DNA of 64,000 nt from a virus (taxonomy: Duplodnaviria; Caudoviricetes). Within the stretch, counting starts at the first letter, position 1, and each line of letters starts with the position of its first letter. Below the pieces are notes generated by a model. The model was not told where the DNA came from. It was given only the letters and a program-made list of their open reading frames with translations, and did not search any database. The DNA lies in IMG/VR virus record IMGVR_UViG_3300013281_000008, positions 1 through 64,000 of that record; one strand, written 5' to 3'. This document shows, piece after piece, positions 2,341 through 64,000 of the stretch. The position numbers and the translations under genes were made by a program.

Positions 2341-2861
2341 TAAAAGTTTACTCCTAAGCCAATTGTTCCGTGGTTAACGTATCCATTCAATAGATAATTA
2401 TTCTCTAAAAACACTCTTTTGTCAAGAGGTATTTTAATACTAAATGTAGCCCCTCCCATAGGAATAACTTGTATTCCAGCCTTTTTAATGGAGAATAAAG
2501 GGAAATGCCGTTCTGGACGAACTAAAGTACCACCCACAACACCAACGCTAAATACTGATAAGAAGTCAATCTTGGGTCCTAGAAAGAATCCTCCAGAAGG
2601 ATCATTAATTGTATCTTTCATAAAGAATACACTATATTGCATATGCTTAGATTTATACGTTAAATTAACTTCTGGGTGCCAAGTCCAATCTGCATTCTTG
2701 TCTAGCTTTCTAGGAGCCAATGGAGCCAGTTCGGATTGACTTTTTCCATGAAAAGTGAGACCCAAGGGACTCAAAGATATTGAATCCGCTTGGGTCGTTT
2801 CAAAGGGAATTATCCAAAGACTTATAATTAATATAGCATATTTTAAATAATTGTCAAACAT
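2340..2861 (-). CDS. small outer-membrane beta-barrel-like protein
   Basis: Signal peptide, amphipathic beta-strands, C-terminal GLGVNF (terminal Phe). Confidence 0.55.
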   Translation of the reverse strand: MFDNYLKYAILIISLWIIPFETTQADSISLSPLGLTFHGKSQSELAPLAPRKLDKNADWTWHPEVNLTYKSKHMQYSVFFMKDTINDPSGGFFLGPKIDFLSVFSVGVVGGTLVRPERHFPLFSIKKAGIQVIPMGGATFSIKIPLDKRVFLENNYLLNGYVNHGTIGLGVNF

Positions 2862-3070
2862 TATTCACTTCTCTCCTTCAAATCTTCACTAAGCTGTCTC
2901 CAAAGCTGACTCTGAAGCTGACTCCAAAGCTGACTATAAAGCTGATCCCCAAGCTGACTCCAAAGCTGTCTATGAAGCTGACTCTCAAGCTGACTCCCAA
3001 GCTGACCCCTAAGCTGACTATAAAGCTGACTCTTAATATCTTCACCTAAAAAGTCTGAATTATTTTCCAC
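2861..3070 (-). CDS. xxQL-repeat cassette A (12 units)
   Basis: DFLGE head, 12-nt NNNNNNCAGCTT units, EDLKE tail. Confidence 0.8.
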   Translation of the reverse strand: MENNSDFLGEDIKSQLYSQLRGQLGSQLESQLHRQLWSQLGDQLYSQLWSQLQSQLWRQLSEDLKERSE

Positions 3071-3722
3071 CCGTTACTTCTCCGTTACAAAATGGAGGAT
3101 TCTTGAATACAGCGGAAGCTATTAATATAGCCGCCGCTTGATCTTCGTCCTCCCTAACCAAATTTAAATCATAAAGCTCATTTGCAGCCCTAATATAAGC
3201 ATCCTTCTTCGTAAATTTACGAAGCTTATTACCTTGCTCGTCTTTTCGAACGACCTTCTTTCCGGTCTTCTTCTTAAGACGATAGATCTTAGCATTATTG
3301 CTCTTTTCAGCTTTCGAGAATTGTGCTCCCATTAAACGCTTCCAAACTCCATCTCTAATATAAACAACATCTAGTTGGGTCTCGAATAATATATCTATAA
3401 CACAGAAATGAATAAATTCCAAGATCTTTTGAGAATAATTATTCTTGCTTCCAGTTGTTTCTTCTATTGCGATTATATCAATTTTACCATACTTTTGAGA
3501 TAAGTCTCTGATTCTCCTCATGATTTGCTCAGCCATCTCGATAGCAAATATACGATAACCCCAAGGATACCCTTCTTTTTTCTTCTTTTCCCTAAAGAAA
3601 TCAACTAGATGGATAACCCCACTAGTTAGGAGCTTTCCGTCCTGAACCAGAGCAAATCCAGTTTTAGTGCTTAAATCAAGCCCCAGAACTAACATTACTT
3701 TTACCATCCTTATATTCAACAT
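3060..3722 (-). CDS. RuvC-like Holliday junction resolvase
   Basis: LGLDLSTKTG (RuvC-I), IAIEE (RuvC-II), late D..AA.LIA; located at the end of the recombination operon; true start may be slightly downstream. Confidence 0.7.
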   Translation of the reverse strand: MLNIRMVKVMLVLGLDLSTKTGFALVQDGKLLTSGVIHLVDFFREKKKKEGYPWGYRIFAIEMAEQIMRRIRDLSQKYGKIDIIAIEETTGSKNNYSQKILEFIHFCVIDILFETQLDVVYIRDGVWKRLMGAQFSKAEKSNNAKIYRLKKKTGKKVVRKDEQGNKLRKFTKKDAYIRAANELYDLNLVREDEDQAAAILIASAVFKNPPFCNGEVTGGK

Positions 3723-13264: not shown

Positions 13265-15275
13265 TAAACGGCTTCTTAACATCCTTGAACGATTTAATAC
13301 TTAAAATCTTAGTGTTAATAGGTTCATCTGATTCTTCAGCATCGTCCATTACTTCTTCCATGTCATACTGAGCTTCCAGATTCTGTTTCTTCTCAGTCAT
13401 CTTACGAATCATTTGAGCTTTCTTATGATAAGGAATAAAGATCTCGGATTTTTCATCTATTGTCATTGGGCGGAAATCCTTGCTAACTGAGTCTAGAACA
13501 AGGAGGCGCCAATCATACACCGTGATTCGGTCCCGATTCTCCTCGTCTTGCTCTCTGATCTTACAGTATTGGAATGAGGTCACTTTAAGATCAATCTCCT
13601 TCTGAACCCGTCTAAGTGGCTGCCACGCCGTGATGATGTAGTCACAATACCAATCAAAATGAGAAATCCCATAAGCCGCATTGCCTTCAATCGGAATATC
13701 ACCAACCCCAGACTTCGATTTAGTCGTTTGAGACTGAGCTATAATGAATACATCTAGTTCTTTGGCTAAGGTTTTGAGTTCAGCGCAAATCCGCTCAAGT
13801 GGCATACTCTTTTTAGAGTCAAATCCAAAGTCTGCATTATTGATCAGATTAAAATTAGGAATTTTAGTTGTATCGATGACTGGGCTAATCGCGGCAATAT
13901 GGTCAATAGTAATAGCCAGAACCTTCTTTCCGGTCACTTGCTCAGTATGACGCACTGTCCAGTAAATCTCTTGCAAACCTATACGAATCGGATTACCATC
14001 TTCGTCCTCATTACTAATGATGTACAGTCTATCATCAAAATCCTCATGAGCGACATTGCCTTTCTTCCATCTCTTAATCATTTGATGGGCTGGCATTTCC
14101 AAACTGAAGTACATGAGTAGTCCGTCGCCAGTATTATTGCGAGCAATATGCCGAAACATCGACAACGCTAGAGTTGACTTACCAATACCTTCCCCAGCAA
14201 TCAATCCAAGAACTTCAGTTCGCCTCCAACCGGAATGTGTTCGATCCATAAAGGACGGACCATATATTCTTTCACCCATTGTCGGGAGTTTGCCAGACAC
14301 AGTCATTGCTTTAACAGTCGATGCGACGTGAGTCGGACGCATCTTGAATACCTTATCGATAATACCAGTTACATAGTCTTCTGGATTGCCTTGGTATTCT
14401 CTGGCCTTCTTGGTGTGCATCAAAACCTGAAAAACTTCATTCTTATTGAAGAAGTGTTCAAATAGCTTGTTACAGAGGGCATAGTCGGCACTCGATCTAT
14501 CACCACTGGTTTCAATAGGATTCTCAAAAAGCCGACGTATGCCTTCCTCCTTCTTCATCAGTTTGATAAATTTCTCAGGTAAGATAGAGAAGTCAGGAGT
14601 TTGATCCATAATACTTTTATATGTACCATTAAGTCTGGATAATTTCAAGTCCAGTTTTATTCGATCTCTCTCAGATAACGGCTGGATGGTCTTCATTACA
14701 TCCTCAAATGTATAAGTCCCATCGTCCATATACTCGAACAATTCTTGGCACTTCTTTAACTCATTAAACTTCTTAGTATTAATAGTTCCTGGCAGTCTCA
14801 TAATACGAGAAGGATTCCAGATACTAGCATCACTCTTAAAATGAGCTATAAGCCTCAGTTGGCCTTCTAGAAACCTAGCTTGATCTAAGTCAGAGACTCT
14901 CCAGTAAACATGATAGCCATTTCCAGACGTTGTTACAGTTGTAGGAACTGGCTTAAACTTCTTAAGAGATTCCAAGAACTTTTCACCAGAACCGTAGTTA
15001 TCTTGAAGTTGTTTAGCATCAATGTCGATATAGATATATTGAAATACGTCTATATCTTTGTCCTGAATAGTTCCAGTGGGGGGTGTGCTTGGGTAATTTG
15101 GAAAGAAATAAACATTATAGCCCAGTTTATTCTTTTCCTCGATAAATCCATCAGATAGTTCTAGATCACCAATGACATCTGGTCCATCAATCTCTTGAAC
15201 GAAATCTTTATTGGATCTACCAGTAGCTTTACTGATGGGTTTAGCCCATTCTGGTTTTATAAGACGATAATACAT
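13257..15275 (-). CDS. bifunctional primase (RepB/AEP-like)-SF4 (DnaB-like) helicase
   Basis: DID, SGNGYHVYW, RIMRLPGT.N.K primase motifs; GEGIGKS Walker A, FSLEM, IDH, SQ helicase motifs. Confidence 0.88.
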   Translation of the reverse strand: MYYRLIKPEWAKPISKATGRSNKDFVQEIDGPDVIGDLELSDGFIEEKNKLGYNVYFFPNYPSTPPTGTIQDKDIDVFQYIYIDIDAKQLQDNYGSGEKFLESLKKFKPVPTTVTTSGNGYHVYWRVSDLDQARFLEGQLRLIAHFKSDASIWNPSRIMRLPGTINTKKFNELKKCQELFEYMDDGTYTFEDVMKTIQPLSERDRIKLDLKLSRLNGTYKSIMDQTPDFSILPEKFIKLMKKEEGIRRLFENPIETSGDRSSADYALCNKLFEHFFNKNEVFQVLMHTKKAREYQGNPEDYVTGIIDKVFKMRPTHVASTVKAMTVSGKLPTMGERIYGPSFMDRTHSGWRRTEVLGLIAGEGIGKSTLALSMFRHIARNNTGDGLLMYFSLEMPAHQMIKRWKKGNVAHEDFDDRLYIISNEDEDGNPIRIGLQEIYWTVRHTEQVTGKKVLAITIDHIAAISPVIDTTKIPNFNLINNADFGFDSKKSMPLERICAELKTLAKELDVFIIAQSQTTKSKSGVGDIPIEGNAAYGISHFDWYCDYIITAWQPLRRVQKEIDLKVTSFQYCKIREQDEENRDRITVYDWRLLVLDSVSKDFRPMTIDEKSEIFIPYHKKAQMIRKMTEKKQNLEAQYDMEEVMDDAEESDEPINTKILSIKSFKDVKKPFND

Positions 15276-15358
15276 TTCCTCTCCAAATGTAAATTATGAG
15301 CAGTTTATTGCGTCATGCTCAGGACGTCTTTTGCTTGCTTCACATGGGAGGAGAGGGG
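15276..15358 (-). promoter_or_regulatory. RBS-sequestering 5' leader of the primase-helicase gene
   Basis: CCUCUCC (15356-15350) complementary to SD GGAGAGG (15284-15278); AUGUGAA pairs with UUUACAU; inner UGAGCA/UGCUCA hairpin. Confidence 0.65.
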
Positions 15359-15760
15359 TTAACTGTCTTCTTCGACGGAGTATCCGTCAGAGTCTAAATC
15401 TGCTTCATCATTACCCCCAGTTGAAGCAGAGCCCTCGCCTTCCTCGATCAGTGTCGTGCAATTATCATTATTAAGATCAACTTTAAGATTGAACTCAAGA
15501 CCGTCAATTTCCTTCGACGGAGCGTTCAAATAAATGCTATTAACTCGATAAACATTGCCGGTGTTGGTATCCTTGAAAAGGAGCTGTCCTTCGGCTTTAA
15601 TCGTCTTTCCATCTTTGGTCTGACGATCCTTGTTATTAATAAAACAAGTGAATTGTCCGGTATTAAACTTTGACTTCCAAATGGAGCCAATCGTTCGATA
15701 GCCGCTATAGTCCTTTTGAGTCTTAGTTGGTGTCTTTGCTGTTTTGTTTCCGAATCCCAT
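15359..15760 (-). CDS. putative single-stranded DNA-binding protein
   Basis: Beta-rich core with acidic disordered C-terminal tail; located between SSAP and primase. Confidence 0.5.
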   Translation of the reverse strand: MGFGNKTAKTPTKTQKDYSGYRTIGSIWKSKFNTGQFTCFINNKDRQTKDGKTIKAEGQLLFKDTNTGNVYRVNSIYLNAPSKEIDGLEFNLKVDLNNDNCTTLIEEGEGSASTGGNDEADLDSDGYSVEEDS

Positions 15761-16274: not shown

Positions 16275-17072
16275 TCATGGCTTTACCTTTAAGGAAGCTT
16301 TCTTTTCAGCCGAGAATAGGTTATTTCGACCACGGACTTCGGCTCCACAACTAGCACAAGAATAACGTTGATATTTACCAACACTGGTATAGCAATAACC
16401 ATTTTTATGGAATTTCTCGCTTCCACAGCTACACACCATGGATTCTGTATCGGTATATAAGTTATAATTCAAACTTCCATCCCATGGTCTAAACTTCTTA
16501 TAAAGTTCCTCAAGGGCTAAGACGTCATGTTTATTATATAATTCCATCTCTTTCCATGCATCTTTATTACCCTTAAGACACTCGGTCCAAAGCTCATGTC
16601 CTGGATACTTCTTATGCTTAAGCTTTTTATACTTAGTATCAGTTACATTGGTCATGTATTCCAAACGATTGGAGGTAAAACCAAACTTCTTCTTAGCAAT
16701 CTTCTTAGTGTCAATGGATTTATATGAACTCGGGGGATTATAACCATTGATTAAAAATCGAGCATTTAGTTTCTTTAAATCGAACTGGTCTCCATTTTGT
16801 GTGATAATAACCTGGGCTTCATTCATAAGTTCCCAAATCCCAGAAAGGAGCTTTTTATCACTACCCATATCTTTTGAATTTCGAAGATCTTGGTAGAACA
16901 ATTTGGGTTCATCTAACCATTTAGCACACCAGGCTATGATATTCCAATCTTTCTTAATCTGATTCAATCCAACATCTTGATTCCAGATACTCCATACATT
17001 AGCTAGGATCGGAGCGGTCTCTATATCCAGTAGGAGTATACGAACTCCTTTATTTTTGCTTGATTTACTCAT
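16275..17072 (-). CDS. RNase H-like (DEDD) exonuclease with C-terminal zinc ribbon
   Basis: LLDIETAP, QNG..FD, YN.HDV..L; CxC...C..C tail. Confidence 0.8.
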   Translation of the reverse strand: MSKSSKNKGVRILLLDIETAPILANVWSIWNQDVGLNQIKKDWNIIAWCAKWLDEPKLFYQDLRNSKDMGSDKKLLSGIWELMNEAQVIITQNGDQFDLKKLNARFLINGYNPPSSYKSIDTKKIAKKKFGFTSNRLEYMTNVTDTKYKKLKHKKYPGHELWTECLKGNKDAWKEMELYNKHDVLALEELYKKFRPWDGSLNYNLYTDTESMVCSCGSEKFHKNGYCYTSVGKYQRYSCASCGAEVRGRNNLFSAEKKASLKVKP

Positions 17073-17304
17073 AATACTTTATAACCGTCTTTCCTCCGTG
17101 TGAATGAATAGCTTCCAATTCTTTCATATTATCAAATATAGTGATTGTATGGTGTTGTGTGAGCCAAGATAGAACAACTCGTCCAGTACTCAGTTCAACC
17201 CCCTCAGCAACATATCCTTCACCCGAAACACCATGAACATCTTGCAAACGTTCTAGGTAAAACATCCTCATACCTGGCTTTGGTTTCTTAGATTTCTTTG
17301 GCAT
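17065..17304 (-). CDS. conserved small phage protein
   Basis: FYL.R..DV.GVSG.G.VAEGV..HGG.T pattern. Confidence 0.55.
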   Translation of the reverse strand: MPKKSKKPKPGMRMFYLERLQDVHGVSGEGYVAEGVELSTGRVVLSWLTQHHTITIFDNMKELEAIHSHGGKTVIKYYE

Positions 17305-17941: not shown

Positions 17942-18031
17942 AATAAATCTTCACCGGGGACAAGATTCGAACCTGTAATAGGTAAATTAACAGTTTACTG
18001 CGTTGCCAATTTCGCCACCCCGGTGAACATC

Positions 18032-21867: not shown

Positions 21868-22366
21868 CGCCTTTAGGTTTCTTAGGGAAAGGAACTAACT
21901 GACCTTTTGGTTTATTATCTTCAATAAGCTGATCTAAATCGTTCAAAAAGGATTCAGGCTCCATTTGAACAACGCCTTGGATTAGCTCAAAGTATTCTTC
22001 TTTAGCTTGCTCCCCATACAGGATCTCTCCGGTTTTATGGCTATGGTGGAAATAAGAGCCAACTAGGAAGTCTGGGAACTGTTTACGCACAGTATCGATA
22101 AACTCCATAACTTCAATTCCTTTGGAAAGGAATGAACAACTAACCACAACTCTATCTTCTTGAGCTTCTATGATAAAATCTACGCCACCCAAAGGAGGAG
22201 TTTTAATACAAATAGCGTAATGAGGGTTTTCTTTGGCTTCTGACTGGTCTTCAACCATCAAAAGATTATCTGGAACGAATTCTTTTAGTTCTTTAAGAAT
22301 TGTTTCCATTTTAAAAACTAAGCTTTTTGAAAGCATGAATACAGCATAGCCTACTGGAGTCTTCAT
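21848..22366 (-). CDS. hypothetical protein
   Basis: 172-aa ORF. Confidence 0.65.
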   Translation of the reverse strand: MKTPVGYAVFMLSKSLVFKMETILKELKEFVPDNLLMVEDQSEAKENPHYAICIKTPPLGGVDFIIEAQEDRVVVSCSFLSKGIEVMEFIDTVRKQFPDFLVGSYFHHSHKTGEILYGEQAKEEYFELIQGVVQMEPESFLNDLDQLIEDNKPKGQLVPFPKKPKGDDPTFN

Positions 22367-22660
22367 GTCAATAGCTAATAAGTAAAGCTTTTCAATAGCC
22401 TATAGCCTACTGGACTAGCAGTACATAGCTATATTTATTCTCTAGAACCCTAAGCCTACTGTAGTCTTTCCAATACAGACCCTTCTCTCCATGTTCTATA
22501 TGAAAGCTATCTGTAGGACTTATTAGCTTATAGTAATAGCAGTATATTGAGTAGCTATTACGTAGGCTAAGACTTACAGTAAGCTATAAGCTAATGTATT
22601 GCTTAATAGCTATAATAAATCCTACTTATTACAAACTGAGCTTATTACACTGTTCTTGTC
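22340..22660. repeat. AGCT/TAGC-rich low-complexity tract with AGCCTACTG direct repeats (candidate origin)
   Basis: tagcctactgga at 22347 and 22403, aagcctactgta at 22452, and numerous AGCT/TAGC motifs; no long ORF. Confidence 0.5.
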
Positions 22661-23185
22661 CCAAAACAATTAAGGAACATGGAGTCGGGAAGTGAACTAC
22701 CTAACCGAACCGGGGTCTTGCAACAGTGCTTTTACCCATATGTTACAAAGTCATAGAATAACTGAAGGTTGGTCGTCTGACTAGGGTAGTTCAACCGGAG
22801 GGCCTCCCAATACCGCGACATAAGCTACTAGCTATCTAGAGCTAGGACTTTACATACTGAAAAGAAGAAAATAGGAATAGAACTCCTAAGATCGTGCTTT
22901 TGTTTTTTTCAGTTAGGCTTATGGTTTGGTACCTTACGCCCGCAGTTTCAGCTATCTTAATTACTATGTGGCTATAACCGCCGTTTTGTTGATTTGGCAG
23001 CAAACTCCAATTGCGGCATAAACGCTGCCCCTTAGAAAGAGTGTTTGGTGTAACTACTCCCAAGTTCCTGCGCTCTAAGAGAGTATTTCATCCCGTCGAT
23101 ACGATTAGGTCAAGTAGTCCACTCAGACTTCGGTAACTTAAATTTTCCAATCCATCATGTGAAGCAAGCAAAAGACGTTCTGTTC
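22660..23185 (-). ncRNA. candidate structured non-coding RNA (~500 nt)
   Basis: Begins just downstream of the TTAATAAGTAT motif; helices 22693-22701/22785-22793 (9 bp), 22996-23001/23024-23029 and 23031-23036/23074-23079; 5' end antisense to the primase leader. Confidence 0.55.
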
Positions 23186-23227: not shown

Positions 23228-23443
23228 TCATAAAACATTTGTTTCCTTTAAATCTTCAATAAGAAGATTTAGCTGACTCACAAGCTGATCCCTAAGCTGA
23301 TCCCTAAGCTGACCCCTAAGCTGAATCCCAAGCTGATCATCAAGCTGACTCCAAAGCTGACTCCAAAGCTGATCCTCAAGCTGACTCCAAAGCGGTCTCC
23401 CAAGCTGACCTTTAATATCTTCTCCTAGAAAGTCTGCTTTCAT
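23228..23443 (-). CDS. xxQL-repeat cassette C (12 units)
   Basis: Family head, units and tail present. Confidence 0.8.
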   Translation of the reverse strand: MKADFLGEDIKGQLGRPLWSQLEDQLWSQLWSQLDDQLGIQLRGQLRDQLRDQLVSQLNLLIEDLKETNVL

Positions 23444-24387
23444 TTGCGCTTCTTCCTAAACTTATTTAGCATAGACTTTTGGAAACCATATGGATCTTCA
23501 TCGTCTTCACTATCTTCATATGGATCGTATTCATCATTTTCAGCGTCTAGATGAGCTTCCATCATTTGCCTAGCTTTCAGAATAGCATCTTCAAACTTAA
23601 TACCAATACAAAGGACGCTAATAATAAGATCTTTAATATGGTCAATTGTAAAACCCTCGGTTTGCCGAACCCAGTATTCTACATCAATCTCATCTTTCAC
23701 TTTAGCTTTAAGGAACTCCCTTCTAGCATTAGCATCTGGAGTAGGAACTTCAATCACAAGAGCAAATCTAGAAGGTCTATTTCGAATACGAGGAGGAATC
23801 CTATCTAAATAATTAGTTGTAGCGATGTAAAGAACATTCTGAATCTGCATCTCACCATCTAGTAGGGAGAGGAAAGAGCCTTCGTCTCGCTCAAGCAACT
23901 TGTCCAGTTCTTCAAAGATAACTAGAATTCTTCTTTCTTGCTTCTCAATACTTCTGATAATATCCACAGCTTCAGTAAGTAGGCTGGGAGATGGACAGAA
24001 GAATACAATACTTCCGTTATTAACTTCTTTCTCAATTACTTTCGAAACTATACTAGTTTTTCCCGTCCCAGGTAAACCCCAAAGTAGAATTCCACGCTTG
24101 TAAACCATCCCATACTTAGCATAACGACTCTTAACATCTTCCGACCAAAACTGCTCAATCTCACTGATAATTGTAGAACCAACGAAACTGGGAAGTTCAA
24201 CTAGGTCATCAGTCATACTGGACATATTCTTAAAGAACATCTCTCCAGACATATCTCGATGAATTTGATAAATACCAGCTGGGAACTCTTTTTTTCCAGG
24301 ATAGTTCTTTCTTTTGAAATAGACTACTTCTCCGTTAGTGAGAAAGCCATCGTATTCCTTCTCAATTTTGTTTATAATTTTAGGCAT
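23440..24387 (-). CDS. AAA+ ATPase
   Basis: GILLWGLPGTGKT, FEELD, TTNY, NRPSRF (second region of homology). Confidence 0.9.
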   Translation of the reverse strand: MPKIINKIEKEYDGFLTNGEVVYFKRKNYPGKKEFPAGIYQIHRDMSGEMFFKNMSSMTDDLVELPSFVGSTIISEIEQFWSEDVKSRYAKYGMVYKRGILLWGLPGTGKTSIVSKVIEKEVNNGSIVFFCPSPSLLTEAVDIIRSIEKQERRILVIFEELDKLLERDEGSFLSLLDGEMQIQNVLYIATTNYLDRIPPRIRNRPSRFALVIEVPTPDANARREFLKAKVKDEIDVEYWVRQTEGFTIDHIKDLIISVLCIGIKFEDAILKARQMMEAHLDAENDEYDPYEDSEDDEDPYGFQKSMLNKFRKKRK

Positions 24388-24616
24388 TCTTCTTCTCCTT
24401 CAAATCCTCAATAAGCTGACTCCTAAGCTGATTCCCAAGCTGATCCCTAAGCTGTCTCCAAAGCTGACTCATAAGCTGATCATAAAGCTGACTCCTAAGC
24501 TGATCCCAAAGCTGACTCATAAGCTGATCCCAAAGCTGACTCAAAAGCTGACTCCTAAGCTGACTCCTAAGCTGATAGTTCAAATCTTCACCTAGGAAAT
24601 CCTGATTAGCTTTCAT
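24380..24616 (-). CDS. xxQL-repeat cassette D (14 units)
   Basis: Family head, units and tail present. Confidence 0.8.
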   Translation of the reverse strand: MKANQDFLGEDLNYQLRSQLRSQLLSQLWDQLMSQLWDQLRSQLYDQLMSQLWRQLRDQLGNQLRSQLIEDLKEKKNA

Positions 24617-25308
24617 GGAAGCCTCCAGTAGATAGTATCTTGTTTATTCTTTTTTAGAAATTCATTTACTTTAGAGAAGTGTTTACACCAAAAGAATCCC
24701 TTATGAGCAGACATCGGACTAGGATGTGCTGCTTCCAGTATTAAATGATTCGAATTGGTAATTAAATGCTTTTTCTGCTGAGCTAGTTTACCCCACAATA
24801 CCCAGACAATAGGCTGTTTTAAATCATTTACAATACGAACAACCTCGTCAGTGAATGTTTCCCATCCTAGATTCTTATGACTGAGAGGCTTTCCTTTCTC
24901 AACGGTTAGAATTGTATTAAGTAGGAATACTCCCTGAATGGCCCAGTAAGAAAGATCCCCACTTTTGTTTTCAATACCAGAATCAATCTTCAAGGCTCTA
25001 AAGATATTTGTTAAAGACTTAGGATGTTTTGCTGAATCTCTAACGGAAAAAGCTAATCCGGTAGCCGATCCGTCGTGATAAGGATCTTGACCAAGAATAA
25101 CAACCTTGATATTCCAGGGAGGACAAAGATCAAAAGCTTTAAATACATCAAAGCTCATTGGATAGATTGTTGTCCCATTAAATCTCATTTCTTTAATCCT
25201 ATTTTGCATTTCAATAAAGTAGGGTTTTTCAAACTCCACTCTAAGAAGATAATTCCAATTATTCTCCATCATTTTGTACATCTTGTAAACTTCTCTGTCT
25301 TTAACCAA
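24613..25308 (-). CDS. ung: uracil-DNA glycosylase, family 1
   Basis: GQDPYH, GLAFSV, LLNT.LTV, HPSP motifs. Confidence 0.95.
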   Translation of the reverse strand: MVKDREVYKMYKMMENNWNYLLRVEFEKPYFIEMQNRIKEMRFNGTTIYPMSFDVFKAFDLCPPWNIKVVILGQDPYHDGSATGLAFSVRDSAKHPKSLTNIFRALKIDSGIENKSGDLSYWAIQGVFLLNTILTVEKGKPLSHKNLGWETFTDEVVRIVNDLKQPIVWVLWGKLAQQKKHLITNSNHLILEAAHPSPMSAHKGFFWCKHFSKVNEFLKKNKQDTIYWRLP

Positions 25309-27066: not shown

Positions 27067-27350
27067 TATAAATCCCTCTTTATAGTTTTTACGATCTCTT
27101 GAAACTTAACATATTGAATACGATTCATTAAATGCAGAGCAATAAAATGAAGCTCATTTAATTCTTTAAGCATGTGTTTTTTAATGTTAGTACAAGCCTG
27201 TAGTCTTTCCATCGTTCTATGTAAACTACCAGTCTCTATTTCCTTTTCAGCTTCTTTTAGACGTTTAAAACGAGCGGTAAATGCTCTGAATCTATCAGCA
27301 AAGACTGCTTTCTGTTCATCATTAATTTGCATGTTAGATTTGGTTTTCAC
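27066..27350 (-). CDS. hypothetical protein
   Basis: 94-aa ORF, GTG start after the cassette F SD. Confidence 0.55.
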   Translation of the reverse strand: MKTKSNMQINDEQKAVFADRFRAFTARFKRLKEAEKEIETGSLHRTMERLQACTNIKKHMLKELNELHFIALHLMNRIQYVKFQEIVKTIKRDL

Positions 27351-27450
27351 TTTTCTCCTTCAAATCCTCAATAAGCTGACTCCTAAGCTGATTCCCAAGC
27401 TGATTACTAAGCTGACCCTTCAACTCTTCACCTAGAAAGTCAGAGTTCAT
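27334..27450 (-). CDS. xxQL-repeat cassette F (4 units, 38 aa; not in ORF track)
   Basis: Translates as MNSDFLGEELKGQLSNQLGNQLRSQLIEDLKEKSENQI*. Confidence 0.78.
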   Translation of the reverse strand: MNSDFLGEELKGQLSNQLGNQLRSQLIEDLKEKSENQI

Positions 27451-27737
27451 TTAATATCCTTCAAATCCTCAATAAGCTGATCCCAAAGCTGATCCCTAAG
27501 CTGACTCCCAAGCTCTTTCCCAAGCTGATCCTCAAGCTGACTCCCAAGCTCTTTCCCAAGCTGATCCTCAAGCTGACTCCAAAGCGGTCTCCCAAGCTGA
27601 ATCTTAAGCGGACCCTCAAGCTGACTCCAAAGCTGACTCCAAAGCTGATCCTCAAGCTGACTCCAAAGCGGTCTCCCAAGCTGACTCCAAAGCTGATAGT
27701 TCAAATCTTCACCTAGGAAATCCTGATTAGCTTTCAT
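27447..27737 (-). CDS. xxQL-repeat cassette G (19 units)
   Basis: Family head, units and tail present; tandem with F. Confidence 0.8.
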   Translation of the reverse strand: MKANQDFLGEDLNYQLWSQLGRPLWSQLEDQLWSQLWSQLEGPLKIQLGRPLWSQLEDQLGKELGSQLEDQLGKELGSQLRDQLWDQLIEDLKDIK

Positions 27738-28132
27738 TTAATATCTCCGAAGAATTCTTCGATAATCCGCTTTGAAACTTTGATAATCTGACTATTTCTC
27801 ATATAAACTAGATAAGCTTCATATATCTTTTGAGTATTTTGGCTCATATCACCAAGTATAACTGCAAACCCTCTTACTTTTGATTGCTTTCTAGAGTCTC
27901 TCCAGTGAACTCGACTTACAACTCCATCTAAAGCAAGCTTTCCAAGATCTCCTGGTAGTATAACGTCTACTCTACACCATTCTTTAGGTGTTGGTAACTC
28001 CCCATTTGTTTCAAAGAACATTCCTTTATTACTTAGATCTTTTAACTTCAAATCTCCAGATGATGTTTCCCAAGCAACTGACAGTCTATCATTCACAATT
28101 GGGATTCGAATGTCTGATCTCTTTTCTTTCAT
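27734..28132 (-). CDS. PilZ-domain protein
   Basis: RxxxR (RSDIR) and DxSxxG (DLSNKG) c-di-GMP motifs; G.V.R...GFAV beta-barrel pattern. Confidence 0.8.
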   Translation of the reverse strand: MKEKRSDIRIPIVNDRLSVAWETSSGDLKLKDLSNKGMFFETNGELPTPKEWCRVDVILPGDLGKLALDGVVSRVHWRDSRKQSKVRGFAVILGDMSQNTQKIYEAYLVYMRNSQIIKVSKRIIEEFFGDIK

Positions 28133-28133
28133 T

Positions 28134-28526
28134 TTACTTCTCTAAGTAATAGTAGGTCTTCGAGTCTGGATCAAAAGTATAGTCCTTATCTATAATAGTC
28201 TCTTTACAATTAGTGCCTTTAAATTGGCCTGCATATTTGTAAGTCCCATCTTGAAACAAAAAATAAGCATTTCGAAAACCGTCTAATTTTAAAGCACATT
28301 CTTGGGTGAAATCTTTAAGGAATTGAATAATTTGATCGTCGCAACCGCCAATTGCAATTAAACTATCCTCATGGACGCCTTTAAAACAACCGGATACGTC
28401 CTTAACTTGAAATCCATCGTTAAGTAAGTATTTTCGGCCATTTTCATGGGCTTTTAGATTAGTAGCTTCACAATTCTGCGCGTTATATGCACTAATAATA
28501 TAAGTAACTGGATAAAATGGTCTCAC
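28134..28526 (-). CDS. DUF3293/SAM-lyase-like small protein
   Basis: ISAYN...N...GF...V.G.FKG..E.S....F.QEC.L pattern. Confidence 0.4.
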   Translation of the reverse strand: MRPFYPVTYIISAYNAQNCEATNLKAHENGRKYLLNDGFQVKDVSGCFKGVHEDSLIAIGGCDDQIIQFLKDFTQECALKLDGFRNAYFLFQDGTYKYAGQFKGTNCKETIIDKDYTFDPDSKTYYYLEK

Positions 28527-29837: not shown

Positions 29838-30048
29838 TTTCTTTCTCCTTCAAATCTTCTTCAAACTGATTCCTAAGCTGCCACCCAAGCTGACTCCCAA
29901 GCTGATTCCCAAGCTGACTCCCAAGCTGATTCCCAAGCTGACTCCCAAGCTCTTTCCCAAGCTGATTCACAAGCTGACTCCCAAGCTGAATCTTAAGCTG
30001 ACTCACAAGCTGACCCTTCAATTCTCCACCTAGAAAGTCAGAGTTCAT
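29824..30048 (-). CDS. xxQL-repeat cassette H (13 units)
   Basis: Family head, units and tail present; supplies the SD of the DUF6745-like gene. Confidence 0.8.
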   Translation of the reverse strand: MNSDFLGGELKGQLVSQLKIQLGSQLVNQLGKELGSQLGNQLGSQLGNQLGSQLGWQLRNQFEEDLKEKENEEN

Positions 30049-30362
30049 TTAATATCCTTCAAATCCTCAATAAGCTGATTCCCAAGCTGACTCCCAAGTT
30101 GACTCCCAAGCTGATCCCTAAGCTGACTCCCAAGCTCTTTCCCAAGCTGATCCTCAAGCTGACTCCAAAGCTGATCCTCAATCTGACTCCAAAGCGGTCT
30201 CCCAAGCTGAATCTTAAGCGGACCCTCAAGCTGACTCCAAAGCTGACTCCAAAGCTGATCCTCAAGCTGACTCCAAAGCGGTCTCCCAAGCTGACTCCAA
30301 AGCTGACTCTTCAATTCTTCACCTAGGAAATCCTCTTTTTTCAATCGGCTTGCTTTCGGCAT
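30045..30362 (-). CDS. xxQL-repeat cassette I (20 units)
   Basis: Family core and tail present; tandem with H. Confidence 0.78.
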   Translation of the reverse strand: MPKASRLKKEDFLGEELKSQLWSQLGRPLWSQLEDQLWSQLWSQLEGPLKIQLGRPLWSQIEDQLWSQLEDQLGKELGSQLRDQLGSQLGSQLGNQLIEDLKDIK

Positions 30363-30731: not shown

Positions 30732-31025
30732 TCATAGTTTAATATCCTTCAAATCCTCAATAAGCTGATCCCTAAGCTGACTCCCAAGCTGACTCCCAAG
30801 CTGACTCACAAGCTGACTCCAAAGCTGACTCCTAAGCTGACTCACAAGCTGACTCCCAAGCTGATTCCCAAGCTGATCCCTAAGCTGTCTCCAAAGCTGA
30901 CTCATAAGCTGATCATAAAGCTGACCTCTAAGCTGATTCCCAAGCTGACTCACAAGCTGACCTCTAAGCTGATCCCAAAGCTGACCCTTCAATTCTCCAC
31001 CTAGGAAATCCTGATTAGTTTTCAT
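30732..31025 (-). CDS. xxQL-repeat cassette J (19 units)
   Basis: Family head, units and tail present. Confidence 0.8.
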   Translation of the reverse strand: MKTNQDFLGGELKGQLWDQLRGQLVSQLGNQLRGQLYDQLMSQLWRQLRDQLGNQLGSQLVSQLRSQLWSQLVSQLGSQLGSQLRDQLIEDLKDIKL

Positions 31026-31241
31026 TTAATCTCCCATAAAGTCAGCAGCCGAAATCTGCCGGTCCATCCAAGCTTCGTACAATACATCTTCGCAACTCTC
31101 TTGAAGCTCGTCCAGCTCTTCATCAGTCAAATCTACCATATTATCAGTATAAAACCCACTGCTAAAGTAAATATCCTCCATCTCACGAGAATTACTATCG
31201 AATTCCACTTCAATCTCTCGACCTTTAAATTTCATTAGCAT
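31026..31241 (-). CDS. small acidic protein
   Basis: 71 aa, D/E-rich, strong AAGGAGG SD. Confidence 0.6.
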   Translation of the reverse strand: MLMKFKGREIEVEFDSNSREMEDIYFSSGFYTDNMVDLTDEELDELQESCEDVLYEAWMDRQISAADFMGD

Positions 31242-49762: not shown

Positions 49763-51310
49763 ATGTCAGGTGCAAATATTGTCAGCACGCTGTCTGGTCT
49801 GTTCAAAGAACAGTACAGTGACAAGCTCATGGATCTAGTTCCAGATGGCGTCAAGATGCTTCGAATGGTTCCATTCGTAGAATCTAGTAAAGAAATCGGT
49901 AATTTTTACCATCAGCCTTCTGTTTAAGCATAGGGCCCCTTATTAGAAATGATAAGGTAAACACTCTTTGAATTGCTGGAAACTCCAAAATAGGGACAAT
50001 CAGCAGCCAAGCTGTAGAAATACAGAAGGTTCAACGACTAGGTCATATGACCGTACCGTCAAGCGACGGGAAGTGGAGAGCATCCGAAAGGATGAAGAGA
50101 TAGTCTAATCTTGCAGGTAACTGCAAGCTGCTCGAAAGAGCGGACAAGATGTAGCGAATCTTGTTGAATATAAATGGTGCTTTTGGCACAAGAACACGGA
50201 CTCACGTACGCCCCGGCGAACGGAACGGCCTTCTCCCTAGGAGATGCCATTGCTGCTCGTCTTCAAGATGCTCAAATCGCTGGCGCTCAACTTCTGTTGC
50301 GCTCCTCGATCAGCTATGAAGCCGCTGCCCGTGCGTCGAACGATAAGAAAGCTTTCGTGAAAGCGACCAGCCTTCTTGTCGAAAACATGCTCAACTCAAT
50401 CAGCAAGCGATTGGAAATCTCGCTTCTCTACGGACAATCAGGCCTTGCCTCGTCTGTAGCGACGACTAACCAATCTGCTACTTCTACCCGTCTGGAAGTT
50501 CCTGCGGCTTCTTGGGCCCCTGGAATCTGGTCTGGATCGGAAAACGCTGTTTTGGTTGCGTACAACGGTACAACCCGTCTGAACGCTGCGGATACCGCTG
50601 GTTACACGGTTACTTCGGTTGATCTTCTCAACCGATATGTATTCGTGTCTGCATCTAGTGCTGATATTACGGCGATTGACGCTGCTTCTGGTAGCATCAC
50701 GCTGTACTTCCTCAGTTCAGTGGTTGGTTCCGGTGGAGGTCAAACCTTTAACGAAATGGCCGGTCTTGATAAGATCATTACGAACACTGGCTCGCTCTTC
50801 AACATCAACGCTTCTACGTATGCGTTGTGGAAAGGTAACTCCTACAGCGCCGGATCTGCGTCACTTAGCTTGACAAAGATCTTGAACGCCGTGGCGTTTG
50901 CCGTGGAACGTGGTCTTGATGAAGATGTAGTTTGCATGATGTCTGCAAAGACGTGGGCAAACATTGCTTCTGATCAAGCTGCTCTTCGTATCTATGATCA
51001 AAGCTACAAGCCCTCGAAGCTTGAAAACGGTGCTTCTGAGTTCGTGTTCAACGGACAAAATGGTCGCATCGAAATCCACACTTCAATCTACGTCAAAGAA
51101 GGTGAAGCATTCGTGTTTCCTCTTAAGAGACTTAAGAGAATTGGAGCTATGGATGTTAGCTTTAAAATGCCTGGTCGTAGCCAACAAGAAGACTTCTTCT
51201 TGGAGCTATCTAATGCTGCTGGGTACGAGCTCAGATGTTATACTGATCAAGCAATCTTCTGTGATTCGCCTGCGAAACTCGTGAAGATTACGAACATCGT
51301 TAATAGCTAA
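49763..51310 (+). CDS. major capsid protein, spliced: exon 1 49763-49918, exon 2 50177-51310 (429 aa)
   Basis: Exon 1 MSGANIVSTLSGLFKEQY...FYHQP joins in frame to VLLAQEHG...; follows the scaffold gene; high-expression codon bias. Confidence 0.85.
49919..50176 (+). mobile_element. group I intron (IA-like, 258 nt, ORF-less)
   Basis: P AAUUGCUGGAAA, Q AAUCAGCAG, R GUUCAACGACUA, S AAGAGAUAGUC; P1 GCCU|U:AGGGC with U.G; P10 AAGCAU:GUGCUU; terminal omega-G at 50176; P7.1/P7.2 hairpins. Confidence 0.92.
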
Positions 51311-51412: not shown

Positions 51413-52849
51413 ATGAAAGAATGTTCTAAATGCAAGCAGATTTTAGCTTTTGAAGAGTTTGCTAAATGTAAAGCCAATAGAGATGGTTATCAATATCAAT
51501 GTCGAAAGTGTAAGAAACTTGCAGTTGAACAAATTAAACTCCTTCACGTAGATGGAAATTATAGTGACAATATAAGTAATAAGCAATGTTCTAGATGTCA
51601 CAATCTTCTTCCTAAAGACGCTTTTACAAAGAATTCATGTCAGAAAGACGGCCTTCATAATGAATGTAAAGGATGTATGTCATTAAGGGCTAAATTACGT
51701 TATTCAAATAACAAGGATAAAATTAAAGCCCAACAGGCTAATTATTATAAGAATAATAAACATGTTAAAAATACTTATTGGCAAAAACGAATAAAAACCG
51801 ATGTACAATTTAAGATAAAAGTGGGATTAAGAAGACGTCTAAAATTAGCATTAACCAATAATTATAAGAAAGGGATGGTTATAAAGAATCTTGGCTGTAG
51901 TGTTGAGGAGTTTAAGTGCTATTTCGAGTCTAAGTTTCAACCCGGAATGACTTGGAAAGACTTTCTTAAAGGTAAAATACATGTTGACCATATTAAACCA
52001 TTATCTGCTTTTAATTTGACAGATCCTGAACAAATTAAAGAAGCTTGTCATTATACTAATTTACAACCTCTTTGGTGTGAAGATAACATTAAAAAGGGTT
52101 CGAAGTATATTAATACATTCTATGAAGATGATAATTTAAAAGTAAATATTATACCCATATCTGTTTTAGTTGGGATGGATAGACATCATTTATCTAAAGA
52201 GGTTCAAAAAACGAATAAAAGGCTTGTACAATTCTTTGATTTTGAATTGGTAGAAAGAGGATTTCAAATAACAAGCTTTGTAAAATCGGCTAGTGGACAA
52301 AATAAAAATAAGGTATTTGCTAGAAAATGTGAAATTAAAGAAGTTTCCCAAGACGATGCTAAAGGCTTTTTAGATAAATATCATATTCTAGGTGGCTCAT
52401 TAAATTTTAGATTAGCATTGGGTTTATTCCATAAAGATGATTTAATAGCTTTAGCGACATTTGGAGCACACCATAGGAATCATACTAAGAATGTATTAAG
52501 TCGTTTTGTGACTAAAATAGACTGGAATGTAATAGGTGGCTTGTCGCGACTTTCTAAAGCTGCTTATGATCAATTGGGTGAGATTTATACGTGGATTGAT
52601 TTACGCATGTCAAATGGGGATAATTGGATTAAAGCCGGTTGGATATTCGAAGAAAAGCTGAATCCCGACTATTTTTATTATAATTTCAAAGCCAATAAAG
52701 TAATTAAAAAGCAATCTCGACAAAAATCCCTGGTAAACACCCCAGACCATATGACTGAATTTGAACACGCCAAGCGAGATGGTCTAATCCGTATATTTGA
52801 TTGTGGTAAGATACGGTTAAAGTTTGACCCCAAAAAAGAATCTAAATAA
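51413..52849 (+). CDS. HNH endonuclease with Zn-finger repeats fused to a GNAT/Mom-like (Hef-like) domain
   Basis: Two CxxC..DG....CxxC repeats; HVDHI.P...HYTNLQPLW..DN..KG HNH; C-terminal ARKC.I.E...FL..YH..G...SRF...GG.SRL...D.R.S.G..W...G. Confidence 0.75.
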   Translation: MKECSKCKQILAFEEFAKCKANRDGYQYQCRKCKKLAVEQIKLLHVDGNYSDNISNKQCSRCHNLLPKDAFTKNSCQKDGLHNECKGCMSLRAKLRYSNNKDKIKAQQANYYKNNKHVKNTYWQKRIKTDVQFKIKVGLRRRLKLALTNNYKKGMVIKNLGCSVEEFKCYFESKFQPGMTWKDFLKGKIHVDHIKPLSAFNLTDPEQIKEACHYTNLQPLWCEDNIKKGSKYINTFYEDDNLKVNIIPISVLVGMDRHHLSKEVQKTNKRLVQFFDFELVERGFQITSFVKSASGQNKNKVFARKCEIKEVSQDDAKGFLDKYHILGGSLNFRLALGLFHKDDLIALATFGAHHRNHTKNVLSRFVTKIDWNVIGGLSRLSKAAYDQLGEIYTWIDLRMSNGDNWIKAGWIFEEKLNPDYFYYNFKANKVIKKQSRQKSLVNTPDHMTEFEHAKRDGLIRIFDCGKIRLKFDPKKESK

Positions 52850-52881: not shown

Positions 52882-52972
52882 TTATAGAACAACATTCAAC
52901 TTGTACTCCCTATACGGTATAGGGTTGCCTCTCTCCTTGAGGTCCTGTTGAATCAAAGGAGTGTAAATACTT

Positions 52973-61483: not shown

Positions 61484-64000
61484 ATGAGTCAGCAATTAAC
61501 AATTCGAACTCAAGGTCTTTATCGCAATACTAACGAACTCTCTGAAACACCAGAAGGTTCTTTACTTACTGCAGATAATATCGTAATTGATAAAGACAGC
61601 ATTATTGAACCACGTCGTGGTTTAGATTCACTTGCCTATAAATTTCGTGATGCTTCCGACCGTGCTATAAATCTATTCTTCTACAAAGATGCTTTATTGG
61701 CTCATAATAGCACGGACTTAATGAGCCGTTATGATTCAACCGGAGTTGCAGTTACTGGCGACTTTACATCTAGCACGAATATAATTACGTCCATTGCGCC
61801 AAATACCGATGATTTATCAGTCGGCCAAACTGTTGTCGGAACCTACGTATTTGAATTAACAGCGGTTGCCGACGTAGCCGGAAGCTTAGCTGGTAAATAC
61901 TTTCTATTTAATGCCGCTCAAAATAGTACTAGATACTATGGTTGGTTTCAAGTTTCTGGTTCTGGAATAAATCCAAACGTACCAAATAGAACCGGTGTTC
62001 AAATTAACATATCGACAAACGACACCGCAAATACTGTAGCCTCGGCAATTAACACGCAAGTGAACGCTTTGACCGATTTTAATTCTAGTGTTCTAGGTGC
62101 TATCGTAACTGTTACGAATGCAAATGTTGGAGATTCTGATATTGCAAGAAACGCCCCGGGCGTAGACTCTCCAGGATTTACATTTAATAATATTGGTACT
62201 GGTGTTCCAGAGGGAACCGTTATTGACAGTATCGATAGCGCTTCCCAAGTAACTGTGTCCCAAAACTTCACCGAAACTCGAACTGGTGGTAATATAGCCT
62301 TTGCCGGATGGCGTAATTATAATGGAACTTATACCGCTCCCGGTGCCGCTTATACTAGAATTAGGGCATCTACCTCTAATCAGAACTTCTATTTTGTTTC
62401 CAATACTGGAGTTAAAAAGCTTGATAGCTTAGACGGTACTATTATTAATTCCGGCGGAATAAAAGCCATTGATGGGGCTGGAACTACGACCGGATCTTCT
62501 GGTTTTTTAGCCAACAATTTTAAAGTCGCATATAGGATTGTTTGGGGTTATAAAGACACCAACAATAACTTAATTTTAGGAGTCCCAAGCGAGCGCATCG
62601 TTGTCAATAATACGAGCGGCGGAACCAGAGATGTAGAATTAACTATTTATATTCCAGATGGTATTACTGTCGATTATTTCTATCAAATCTATCGTTCCGA
62701 ACAAGCTGATGTAAATGGAGAAGGTCCTTCAGACGAGCTTAGGCTTGTATATGAGGATAATCCAACATCTGCTGAATTGACTGACGAAGAAATCGTATTA
62801 ACTGAAAATACTCCAGAAGATCTTAGAGATGGAGCTCTCATTTACACAGCGCCGTCTCAAGAAACCATTCTTCAAGCGAATGAAATACCGCCATATGCGC
62901 AAGATATAGACGTATTTCAAAATTGCATGTTCTATGCGAATACTCGAACACGTCAACAGCTTCCTTTGACATTGTTAGCCGTTGGGGCTCCAACTGGATT
63001 GAATTATATAGTTCAGGACGCAACCTATGTAAATGCTACAACATTCACGGTTGTATCGGCGTCTGGTATTGCAGTTGGAATGCTTATTACTGGTCCTGGG
63101 GCTAATATTCCATCTGGATTGAGTGTTTCAAACGTCAATGGTACTACCATTACGGTGACTGGTGGGACTCTTACCGCTTGGGGTGGAACTATCTCTGTCC
63201 AATTTAGAGATGGTATAACAATCAATGGTGTGCAGTACATATCTAATAATTTGACAGAATATGATAATACTGTTACGTTTACGGCGGCTTCTCCAGGTAA
63301 GGTTAATTGGACAGCTCACGGATTAACTGCTAATTCAACCATTGTCTTTTCAACAACTGGGACACTTCCAACTGGATTAGTTGCAGGAACCACCTATTAT
63401 GTAAATAATCCAGGCGCCAACGATTTTGAGATTGCAGCCACTCAAGAAGGCACAAGTATTAACTTAATTGATACTGGAACTGGTGTTCATACGGCAATTG
63501 CCAACCAAAGACGTTTTCAAGTCTATACTGGCGGATCTCCGGCCCAAAATGTTGACACCACAGCCAGACAAATAATTCGAGTCGTAAATACAACATCTTT
63601 GAATACTACGGTCTATGGATATTATTTATCAGGTCCAGAAGATCTTCCAGGACAAATGTTAATAGAGGCGCGAACTGTTTCAGTTGCTCAATTTTTTACA
63701 ACAGCAACTTCTCACGGAAGTGCATTTAATCCAGTTCTTCCAACATCTGGTACTTCTGTTGCTTCCATTAATGATGAATTTAAAAATGGTCTTTATTTTA
63801 GTAAACCTCTTCAACCAGAAGCCGTTCCATCTGGAAACTTCTTAAGAATTGGTGATGCTGACGAAGAAATCCTTCGTATAAAACGACTTCGAGATGCTCT
63901 TTTCATATTTAAAAAGGATGGAATCTTTCGAGTAATCGGGGATGATCCTACTACATTTAGGGCGGATCTTTTGGATAATACGGCAACTATCGTTGCTCCA
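61484..64000 (+). CDS. tail tubular protein B / P22 gp10-like nozzle protein, truncated at the window end (not in ORF track)
   Basis: ATG 61484: MSQQLTIRTQGLYRN.NELSETPEGSLLTADNIVID....EPRRG; frame not translated codon by codon to the end, but no plus-strand ORF interrupts it. Confidence 0.65.
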   Translation, partial: MSQQLTIRTQGLYRNTNELSETPEGSLLTADNIVIDKDSIIEPRRGLDSLAYKFRDASDRAINLFFYKDALLAHNSTDLMSRYDSTGVAVTGDFTSSTNIITSIAPNTDDLSVGQTVVGTYVFELTAVADVAGSLAGKYFLFNAAQNSTRYYGWFQVSGSGINPNVPNRTGVQINISTNDTANTVASAINTQVNALTDFNSSVLGAIVTVTNANVGDSDIARNAPGVDSPGFTFNNIGTGVPEGTVIDSIDSASQVTVSQNFTETRTGGNIAFAGWRNYNGTYTAPGAAYTRIRASTSNQNFYFVSNTGVKKLDSLDGTIINSGGIKAIDGAGTTTGSSGFLANNFKVAYRIVWGYKDTNNNLILGVPSERIVVNNTSGGTRDVELTIYIPDGITVDYFYQIYRSEQADVNGEGPSDELRLVYEDNPTSAELTDEEIVLTENTPEDLRDGALIYTAPSQETILQANEIPPYAQDIDVFQNCMFYANTRTRQQLPLTLLAVGAPTGLNYIVQDATYVNATTFTVVSASGIAVGMLITGPGANIPSGLSVSNVNGTTITVTGGTLTAWGGTISVQFRDGITINGVQYISNNLTEYDNTVTFTAASPGKVNWTAHGLTANSTIVFSTTGTLPTGLVAGTTYYVNNPGANDFEIAATQEGTSINLIDTGTGVHTAIANQRRFQVYTGGSPAQNVDTTARQIIRVVNTTSLNTTVYGYYLSGPEDLPGQMLIEARTVSVAQFFTTATSHGSAFNPVLPTSGTSVASINDEFKNGLYFSKPLQPEAVPSGNFLRIGDADEEILRIKRLRDALFIFKKDGIFRVIGDDPTTFRADLLDNTATIVAP

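Follow-up and report, generated by a model that had tools for sequence, protein, structure and literature searches.

A predicted clamp on the ribosome-binding site of a phage primase-helicase gene encloses a widespread intercistronic pseudoknot

The leader of the primase-helicase gene in a 64,000-nucleotide stretch of DNA from a virus of the Caudoviricetes (positions 1 to 64,000 of IMG/VR record IMGVR_UViG_3300013281_000008; hereafter the window) is a variation on known schemes of ribosome-binding-site (RBS) sequestration, and it is centred on a pseudoknot (Table 1). In the reading that we favour, which we put a little short of an even chance, this leader would clamp translation in cis, its helices enclosing a conserved pseudoknot between the two cistrons, and would be opened by ribosomes that terminate on the gene upstream. 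If the clamp works in this way, then RNA alone would set the ratio of an abundant upstream protein to the primase-helicase/polymerase set. The pseudoknot itself, ~32 nt in size, varies hardly at all among phages and the prophage-like regions of bacteria from many phyla; it has no match in Rfam 15 and is apparently both undescribed and very widespread.

Table 1. Positions of the leader elements, the neighbouring genes and the candidate trigger and promoter-like sequences in the window.
Feature	Position	Strand	Basis or remark
Leader, 83 nt	15358-15276	minus	between UAA of the 133-aa ORF and the primase-helicase AUG
UAA stop of the 133-aa ORF	15361-15359	minus	2 nt 5' of the anti-SD
Anti-SD CCUCUCC, 5' arm of outer helix	15356-15350	minus	sequence, RNAfold, ensemble
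AUGUGAA, 5' arm of second helix	15345-15339	minus	pairs with UUUACAU, one G-U pair
A-rich spacer GCAAGCAAAAGAC (the proposed 'toehold')	15338-15326	minus	predicted P(unpaired) 0.16 to 0.98 along its length
H-type pseudoknot GUCCUGAGCAUGAC-N-AAACUGCUCA	15297..15326	minus	covariance model, covariation
Pseudoknot stem S1, CGUC with GACG	15326-15323 with 15314-15311	minus	
Pseudoknot stem S2, UGAGCA with UGCUCA	15321-15316 with 15302-15297	minus	13-nt loop between
UUUACAU, 3' arm of second helix	15293-15287	minus	RNAfold
Shine-Dalgarno (SD) GGAGAGG of the primase-helicase gene	15284-15278	minus	sequence, fold
AUG of the primase-helicase gene	15275-15273	minus	sequence
Upstream ORF, 133 aa, acidic C-terminal tail	15359..15760	minus	ORF list
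Primase / DnaB-like helicase gene, 672 aa	13257..15275	minus	family match; PolB and dNMP kinase next
Sigma70-like TTGACA-17-TAGACT, upstream of a 124-aa ORF	16184-16156	minus	pattern match; candidate early promoter
27-nt sequence, candidate trans or same-transcript trigger	23182-23156	minus	RNA complementary 26/27 to leader 15346-15320
17-nt motif TTAATAAGTATTTATAG, exact copy	23201-23185	minus	ends 2 nt before the 27-mer
Late-motif copies TTAATAAGTATTTATAG, exact	37504, 40620, 52871	plus	late-gene spacers
Late-motif copies, two changes	49567, 56008	plus	late-gene spacers

On the 3' side of the leader the primase / DnaB-like helicase gene is followed by genes for a family B polymerase (PolB) and a dNMP kinase. 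These genes overlap just as had been described from the sequence alone: the PolB start overlaps the primase stop as ATGACTAA, and the dNMP kinase start overlaps the PolB stop as ATGA. The start position of the primase gene is correct because the N-terminus MYYRLIKPEW fits the family consensus. The 133-aa ORF on the 5' side had been taken for SSB; it has no Pfam, PHROG or PDB match, its acidic C-terminal tail being the one feature that pointed that way, and the identification is not supported. A sigma70-type promoter had also been proposed further upstream. A 10/12 match to the pattern is present at that place, but the region holds no more such matches than shuffled sequences do.

The minus-strand leader agrees exactly with the sequence as first written out, and the proposal that its SD is locked by CCUCUCC, with AUGUGAA paired to UUUACAU, held up on folding. 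In particular, RNAfold places both outer helices (CCUCUCC:GGAGAGG and AUGUGAA:UUUACAU) in the minimum free energy (MFE) structure and in the centroid of the 83-nt leader. The MFE of -23.1 kcal/mol compares with -15.05 +/- 2.92 kcal/mol for dinucleotide shuffles (z -2.76; 3 of 200 shuffles were as good), and the fold is retained within a 201-nt context. In the ensemble the SD is predicted to be inaccessible, with a probability of 0.014 of being unpaired, and the computed cost of opening the RBS of the free leader is 14.75 kcal/mol. Moreover, the duplex between the SD and upstream sequence reaches -14.1 kcal/mol, compared with -8.6 +/- 1.8 kcal/mol (p 0.007). (Note that the folding used a nearest-neighbour model, by which the pseudoknot is not modelled.) The A-rich segment that the sequence-only reading described as an exposed toehold is indeed partly unpaired, but the predicted probability falls as low as 0.16 in places.

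How might such a clamp be opened? As we picture it, the two outer helices would enclose the pseudoknot and bury the SD of the primase-helicase gene, such that a free 30S subunit would hardly initiate. The mRNA channel of a terminating ribosome covers nucleotides 3-9 past the stop codon, and a footprint of this kind was used for modelling. When a footprint is imposed to 10 nt past the stop codon, the cost of opening the RBS falls from 14.75 to 5.88 kcal/mol and the probability that the SD is unpaired rises from 0.014 to 0.69. Because the anti-SD occupies nucleotides 3-9 past the UAA, and would thus lie within the channel of a terminating ribosome, such a ribosome should open the clamp without any other factor. 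Every termination at the 133-aa ORF would then melt the outer helix and leave the SD briefly free, and the freed 3' arm could refold into a weak hairpin with the SD shown in its loop; an alternative pairing, UACAUUU:AAAUGUA, forms a hairpin of -4.3 kcal/mol that displays the SD in this manner. Synthesis of the primase-helicase would in this way depend on translation of the gene upstream and stay below its level, and synthesis of PolB and the dNMP kinase would follow by way of the ATGA-type overlaps. Coupling of this kind needs no extra component and is consistent with the overlapping genes downstream. We infer both a limiting effect of the clamp on translation in vivo and its opening by terminating ribosomes. 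The earlier proposal of replisome genes kept silent until they are unlocked in trans finds no support here; the footprint model opens the clamp without a further factor. Three observations stand against coupling: one relative alone (L003, described below) keeps the same clamp; footprint melting cannot explain all relatives because their C/U boxes lie 0 to 30 nt past the stop codon; and a cis-acting clamp leaves unexplained the 26/27 antisense copy of part of the leader that is found elsewhere in the window.

Translational coupling through a sequestered downstream RBS is known from the long-range pairing between coat and replicase sequences in MS2 and from E. coli rpmI-rplT. The leader is like these systems in that the SD of the second cistron is masked by sequence at the end of the first, translation of the first cistron would be expected to unwind this pairing, and the genes downstream of the leader continue with overlapping start and stop codons. 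It differs from them in that the pairing partner is outside the ORF, just past its stop codon, a conserved pseudoknot occupies the loop between the arms, and coupling is here a prediction.

The covariation that follows indicates that the inner hairpin of the leader is half of a predicted H-type pseudoknot. The small CGUC/GACG hairpin found by RNAfold corresponds to stem 1, and the UGAGCA(13 nt)UGCUCA hairpin, whose pairing had been noticed from the start, is stem 2 of the conserved pseudoknot, which had been missed. Loop 3 (L3) of the window's copy is CAAUAAAC. The motif has the general form GUCCUGAGCAUGAC-N(1-10)-AAA(C/A)(U/G)GCUC, and the block common to the leaders of L003 and the window is TCCTGRGCATGAC-N4-TAAACTGC. 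We aligned 137 distinct copies for a covariation analysis, with the window's own row included in the seed. Across these copies stem 1 has the form nGUC/GACn, its middle pair being UA in 125, AU in 4 and CG in 4, and its flanking pair occurring as six pair types. Pairing in stem 2 amounts to 86.7%, GC/GU/AU and AU/GC exchanges occur there, and 83.9% of cells are paired over the pseudoknot as a whole. The covariation of the whole structure is 0.206 as against 0.109, a value exceeded by none of 500 shuffles, and all slid registers collapse. The covariance model finds the window's copy at 15331-15292 with 42.1 bits (E 1.2e-9), a score that is slightly favoured because the copy's own row is in the seed. 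No second copy was found in the window with the covariance model, nor in the 83-kb genome by a pattern search.

Searches of Rfam 15 with the window and 18 other loci gave no match at the gathering score, a search of 15200-15450 at E<=10 gave just two chance snoRNA hits, and literature searches by sequence and by keyword returned no description of the motif. In its size (~30-36 nt) and its two short stems the pseudoknot resembles the preQ1-I riboswitch, type III antitoxin RNAs (ToxI, TenpI; PMC12283969) and the 5' half of the pistol ribozyme, and its A-rich third loop should, as in those RNAs, occupy the stem 1 groove. It differs from preQ1-I and pistol in having no Rfam match even at E<=10, and from a type III antitoxin RNA in being a single copy rather than a tandem array, the next gene encoding a primase-helicase and not a toxin. 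Two other identities were tried and rejected: complementarity to the 5' end of 16S rRNA amounts to about one 8-mer in some phyla, which is at chance level, and a cobalamin riboswitch upstream of bacterial copies, suggested by a GCCACUG-like word, is not found by Rfam, the stretch concerned being a tiny coding ORF.

A scan of IMG/VR with the block common to L003 and the window returned 24 contigs with at least six unrelated flanks. The first 14 bases of the block occur in at least 118 viral contigs, nearly all of those listed continuing with AAACUGCUC or AAAAGGCUC, and a gapped pattern occurs in at least 120 bacterial contigs from many phyla. Among the matches listed, the bacterial carriers include Saccharibacteria, Bacillus, Paenibacillus, Clostridia, Selenomonadales, Geobacter, Streptomyces, Synechococcus, Bacteroidota and Verrucomicrobiota. 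The copies that we examined in Bacillus, Paenibacillus and Companilactobacillus lie 5' of phage scaffold/capsid-like genes, recognized by the likeness of their N-termini to a scaffold protein that is confirmed in L009, and these bacterial copies are therefore probably prophage copies. The motif is also present, in unannotated spacers, in the cultured Synechococcus phage S-EIV1 (between PolA and SSB) and Nostoc phage NMeng1, and likewise in Enterococcus phiFL4A, Lactobacillus CV244 and crAss-like phages. Its presence in cultured phages (S-EIV1, NMeng1, phiFL4A and CV244) makes its function open to study at the bench.

The placement of the motif was tabulated for 288 distinct copies (L003-L297). 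In these the motif is on the gene strand, almost never begins less than 5-6 nt from the upstream stop codon (the distance peaks at 6-9 nt) and lies 20-40 nt ahead of the next start codon. The window's copy, 33 nt past the UAA and 21 nt ahead of the AUG, fits this placement rule. Frameshift and readthrough pseudoknots that act at the ribosome entry channel sit at a similar spacing from the stop codon. The motif also occupies spacers between tRNA genes in tRNA arrays, and the genes downstream of its copies are functionally unrelated to one another. At about 18 bacterial loci, a Cys-containing ORF of 20-26 aa ends in frame at a UGA inside the motif. The spacing from stop and start codons, the placement on the gene strand, the tRNA spacers and these tiny ORFs together point to an RNA-level intercistronic element that needs to stay folded during termination upstream. 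Our guess is that the pseudoknot serves as RNA punctuation between cistrons, for processing, stability or insulation.

The tiny ORFs form a family of their own, 18-26 aa long with the pattern M[KR][RW]F..P[RH].AHC..GC...S, each with a strong SD (L185, L196, L199, L249, L261, L297, L242, L221, L251, L255, L275, L277, L287, L253, L201, L211, L235 and L207). They stop at the UGA in the pseudoknot or at a UAG one codon earlier, usually with a terminator next, and synonymous changes at their His, Cys and Gly codons indicate that they are really coding; a search of NCBIfam assigned them to no family.

No close relatives of the window's phage turned up when the phage collection and IMG/VR were searched at the DNA and protein levels, and the relatives used here came from the protein database and from pattern and profile scans. 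The nearest, L003, has a syntenic primase gene whose product is 53% identical. Its leader retains a 7-bp anti-SD:SD helix, UCUCUCC:GGAGAGA, with a compensatory exchange of C-G to U-A relative to the window, and it retains the pseudoknot with a change of A-U to G-C; the spacer between the conserved parts is 10 nt shorter and the intervening sequence has diverged. The fold of the L003 leader itself has a z-score of just -1.2. In L300 the SD pairs with a different upstream segment. Flank-to-flank pairing over 285 motif copies is no better than in shuffles (mean z -0.13), which rules it out as a general property of the motif; among these copies the window ranks 5th (z -3.0) and L003 11th (z -2.2). 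As regards covariation in related phages, one relative (L003) shows a compensatory change, but a family-wide duplex test is null: when the pairing of the SD to any upstream segment was assessed in 58 leaders of the primase family, the result was negative (Fisher p 0.61). SD sequestration as a rule in all primase leaders was rejected on this null result, an exact-hexamer version of the test being too brittle. Taken together, these comparisons of sequence argue that the SD clamp is a real, lineage-specific addition to the motif.

There are weak hints that the habit of clamping extends beyond the lineage of the window and L003. In 41 loci of primase relatives, all six further hits of the covariance model fall in the primase leader, and a C/U box lies between the stop codon and the motif in six of the seven motif-bearing primase leaders. 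Among 84 unique primase leaders we counted 30 C/U boxes where 20.6 were expected (p 0.015; p 2.5e-4 in comparison with coding windows). The primase leaders of L309 and L354 have a four-segment organization, with CCCUCC, AGGGAGG, CCUCCCU plus a U-run, and the SD GGGGAG in that order, an arrangement like that of a terminator/antiterminator attenuator.

The antisense copy referred to above is part of the longest inverted repeat in the window (15346-15320 / 23156-23182, 26/27), whose two arms are ~8 kb apart. Within the genome the 27-mer gives a BLAST E of 5e-7; no such match occurred in 100 shuffles, and control windows of 130 nt reached at most 19 nt. Both sites lie among minus-strand genes, which would make their RNAs complementary to each other. 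In the leader the complementarity extends from the inner arm across the spacer into the pseudoknot, of which it takes in 6 nt, and it reaches just five of the seven anti-SD bases. Besides the copy of TTAATAAGTATTTATAG next to the 27-mer, the window holds five other good copies, all of them in spacers of the block of terminase, portal, scaffold, capsid and tail genes and all oriented with the genes. Like the promoters of single-subunit phage RNA polymerases, the motif ends in TATAG. A search with Pfam and PHROGs, which covered the larger ORFs of the window (64 kb of the 83-kb genome), found no RNA polymerase gene among them. In IMG/VR the 17-mer gave 21 single hits, about chance for an A/T-rich word, and no relatives. 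A 720-nt ORF-poor stretch (22367-23087) lies past the 27-mer; we considered it as a structured RNA and set this aside (z only -0.71, and no Rfam match).

The repeat raises the prospect that a minus-strand transcript of 23182-23156, made more strongly late from the promoter-like motif at 23201-23185, unlocks the SD in trans or within the same transcript, an explanation that we regard as doubtful but plausible. Such an RNA would pair with the spacer, displace AUGUGAA and six bases at the start of the pseudoknot, partly invade the anti-SD and so free the SD; the arrangement would be the natural equivalent of anti-antisense activation or of a toehold switch. The repeat is unmatched in shuffles and control windows and sits 2 nt past an exact copy of the motif from late-gene spacers; its duplex is worth -41.9 kcal/mol against opening costs of 10.0 and ~4.8; the SD has lost its pairing with the anti-SD in the cofold MFE structure (-59.8); and the 47-aa ORF that overlaps the 27-mer has no homologue among 5.8 billion proteins. 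However, both the role of the 17-nt motif as a promoter and the accumulation of the RNA are putative, and blocking the 27 target nucleotides alone leaves the anti-SD:SD helix in place (P unpaired 0.002, opening cost 10.8 kcal/mol). Nor is there comparative support for the pairing: a 23-mer from the repeat has no other copy in IMG/VR, the loci of six testable relatives with long flanks contain no analogous antisense pair, and further assemblies of this phage, at 99.7-100% identity, are too similar to be informative. The fullest form of the proposal, a natural toehold-type riboregulator in which an RNA that starts at the late-gene promoter motif (23201-23185) opens with the 27 nt, invades the leader through the A-rich spacer, unfolds the pseudoknot and helices and turns on translation of the overlapping replisome genes, we think unlikely. 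Were it true, the supply of replication enzymes would be linked to late transcription or to transcription through the nearby iteron-bearing control region, and a real 27-nt trigger would amount to a natural strand-displacement riboregulator in a phage. The same repeat may instead be incidental or act at the level of DNA, being a recent inverted micro-duplication or a site for a double-stranded DNA-binding protein at which the strand is irrelevant, while the flank pairing is merely tolerated and constitutively lowers primase translation and the pseudoknot acts as it does in other phages. This too we hold to be improbable. That most motif copies are without pairing flanks, that the family-wide test of SD pairing is null, that the 27-mer is private to the window's phage and that its copy at 23 kb sits where one would expect an operator downstream of a promoter all fit such an account. 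Yet chance is unlikely to have produced a perfect 7-nt anti-SD along with another helix of 7 bp (p 0.007), the pairing has been kept through a compensatory change at 53% protein identity while the intervening sequence diverged, and a neutral duplication would have had to land at two functionally suggestive sites.

Two further explanations would dispense with ribosome-driven melting as the means by which the SD is exposed. The pseudoknot could be a processing site, self-cleaving or recognized by a conserved host RNase, at which a cut separates the anti-SD from the SD and activates the primase gene irreversibly. The occurrence of the motif between tRNA genes in tRNA arrays, its position 6-9 nt past stops and 20-40 nt ahead of starts in hundreds of unrelated operons, and the near invariance of its sequence across phyla, at a level seen in ribozymes, are what one might expect of a processing site; but cleavage is pure inference from the contexts of the motif, which resembles no Rfam ribozyme, and the 14 bp of the outer helices could hold the cut pieces together for a time. 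To our knowledge, moreover, ~32 nt is below the size of every natural self-cleaving class, and on balance we consider cleavage highly unlikely. A T4-type temporal bypass, in which a late promoter inside the leader would give a shorter transcript without the anti-SD, we regard as barely credible. In T4, RBS hairpins on early transcripts (e, soc) are relieved by late promoters, and the leader shares with them a phage SD that is buried in a hairpin on a long transcript. The analogy with T4 had been drawn in the sequence-only reading, and analogy is what speaks for a bypass here, together with the sole promoter-like match in the leader, TTTACA-18-TATCGT (9/12). Because the -10 element of that match lies in coding sequence, however, its transcript would start past the AUG. 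Between the two arms a pattern search found neither a late-motif copy nor a credible sigma70 site, and thus no promoter by which the anti-SD would be bypassed; the defining feature of the T4 system, a late promoter between the arms, is missing.

If the 27-nt sequence does act as an RNA, the nearest parallels are the small RNAs that activate by an anti-antisense mechanism (DsrA/RprA-rpoS, RNAIII-hla and GlmZ-glmS) and the synthetic toehold switches. As in those, the SD is concealed by a stem in cis, and the inhibitory strand of that stem, together with unpaired sequence next to it, has its complement in another RNA. The leader differs from them in that the inner arm and spacer are covered but just five of the seven anti-SD bases, the 'toehold' is inside the loop and not at the 5' end, and the trigger RNA is putative. 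The c4 antisense RNA of P1/P7, which RNase P releases, represses the icd-ant mRNA by covering its RBS region. The likeness lies in a phage-encoded antisense sequence, possibly on the transcript of its target further downstream, and in control at the level of translation. The site of pairing here is different, being 36-62 nt upstream of the SD, which suggests activation rather than repression of the c4 kind.

Several other features of the window are worth recording. At 22348-22468 and 22343-22371 (minus), three iteron-like repeats AGCCTACTGGAGTCTT, ~50 nt apart, overlap a sigma70-like TTGACA-17-TATGCT; this region, at the end of the 720-nt ORF-poor stretch, is a candidate operator or origin. 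A 23-nt inverted repeat (22/23; 15036-15058 / 62901-62923) joins the 5' part of the primase gene to a plus-strand structural ORF, and its two arms read alike in the two mRNAs. A plus-strand leader (52888-52972) behind the 52871 copy of the late motif carries CCUCUCUCC and a CAUUCAAC/GUUGAAU pairing that abuts the SD, and it may be a second structured RBS. About nine paralogous small genes on the minus strand (2855-3094, 20283, 23246-23449, 24389-24664, 26753, 27349-27761, 29839-30287 and 30738-31033) consist of 12-nt tandem repeats, encoding four residues of a G-x-S-L-like form, and share a C-terminal ...LIEDLKE... sequence. Five copies of an 18-nt tandem repeat, CGTCTTTGCCATCAGCTC, lie inside a minus-strand ORF at 1394-1501, and a tRNA-Asn (GUU) gene (17951-18025, minus) lies within the early/replication block. 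In the gene table of L478 (the same phage), two genes of the early block, at ~17065-17304 and ~28134-28526 (minus) in the window, have precomputed Pfam hits that name an Acb5-family protein and an S-adenosylmethionine lyase, and these are candidate counter-defence genes. A group I intron (49909-50127, plus; 94.8 bits in Rfam) lies just upstream of the ORF for the major head protein (50174-51310), which is itself followed by a gene resembling those for HNH / endonuclease VII homing endonucleases (51413-52849).
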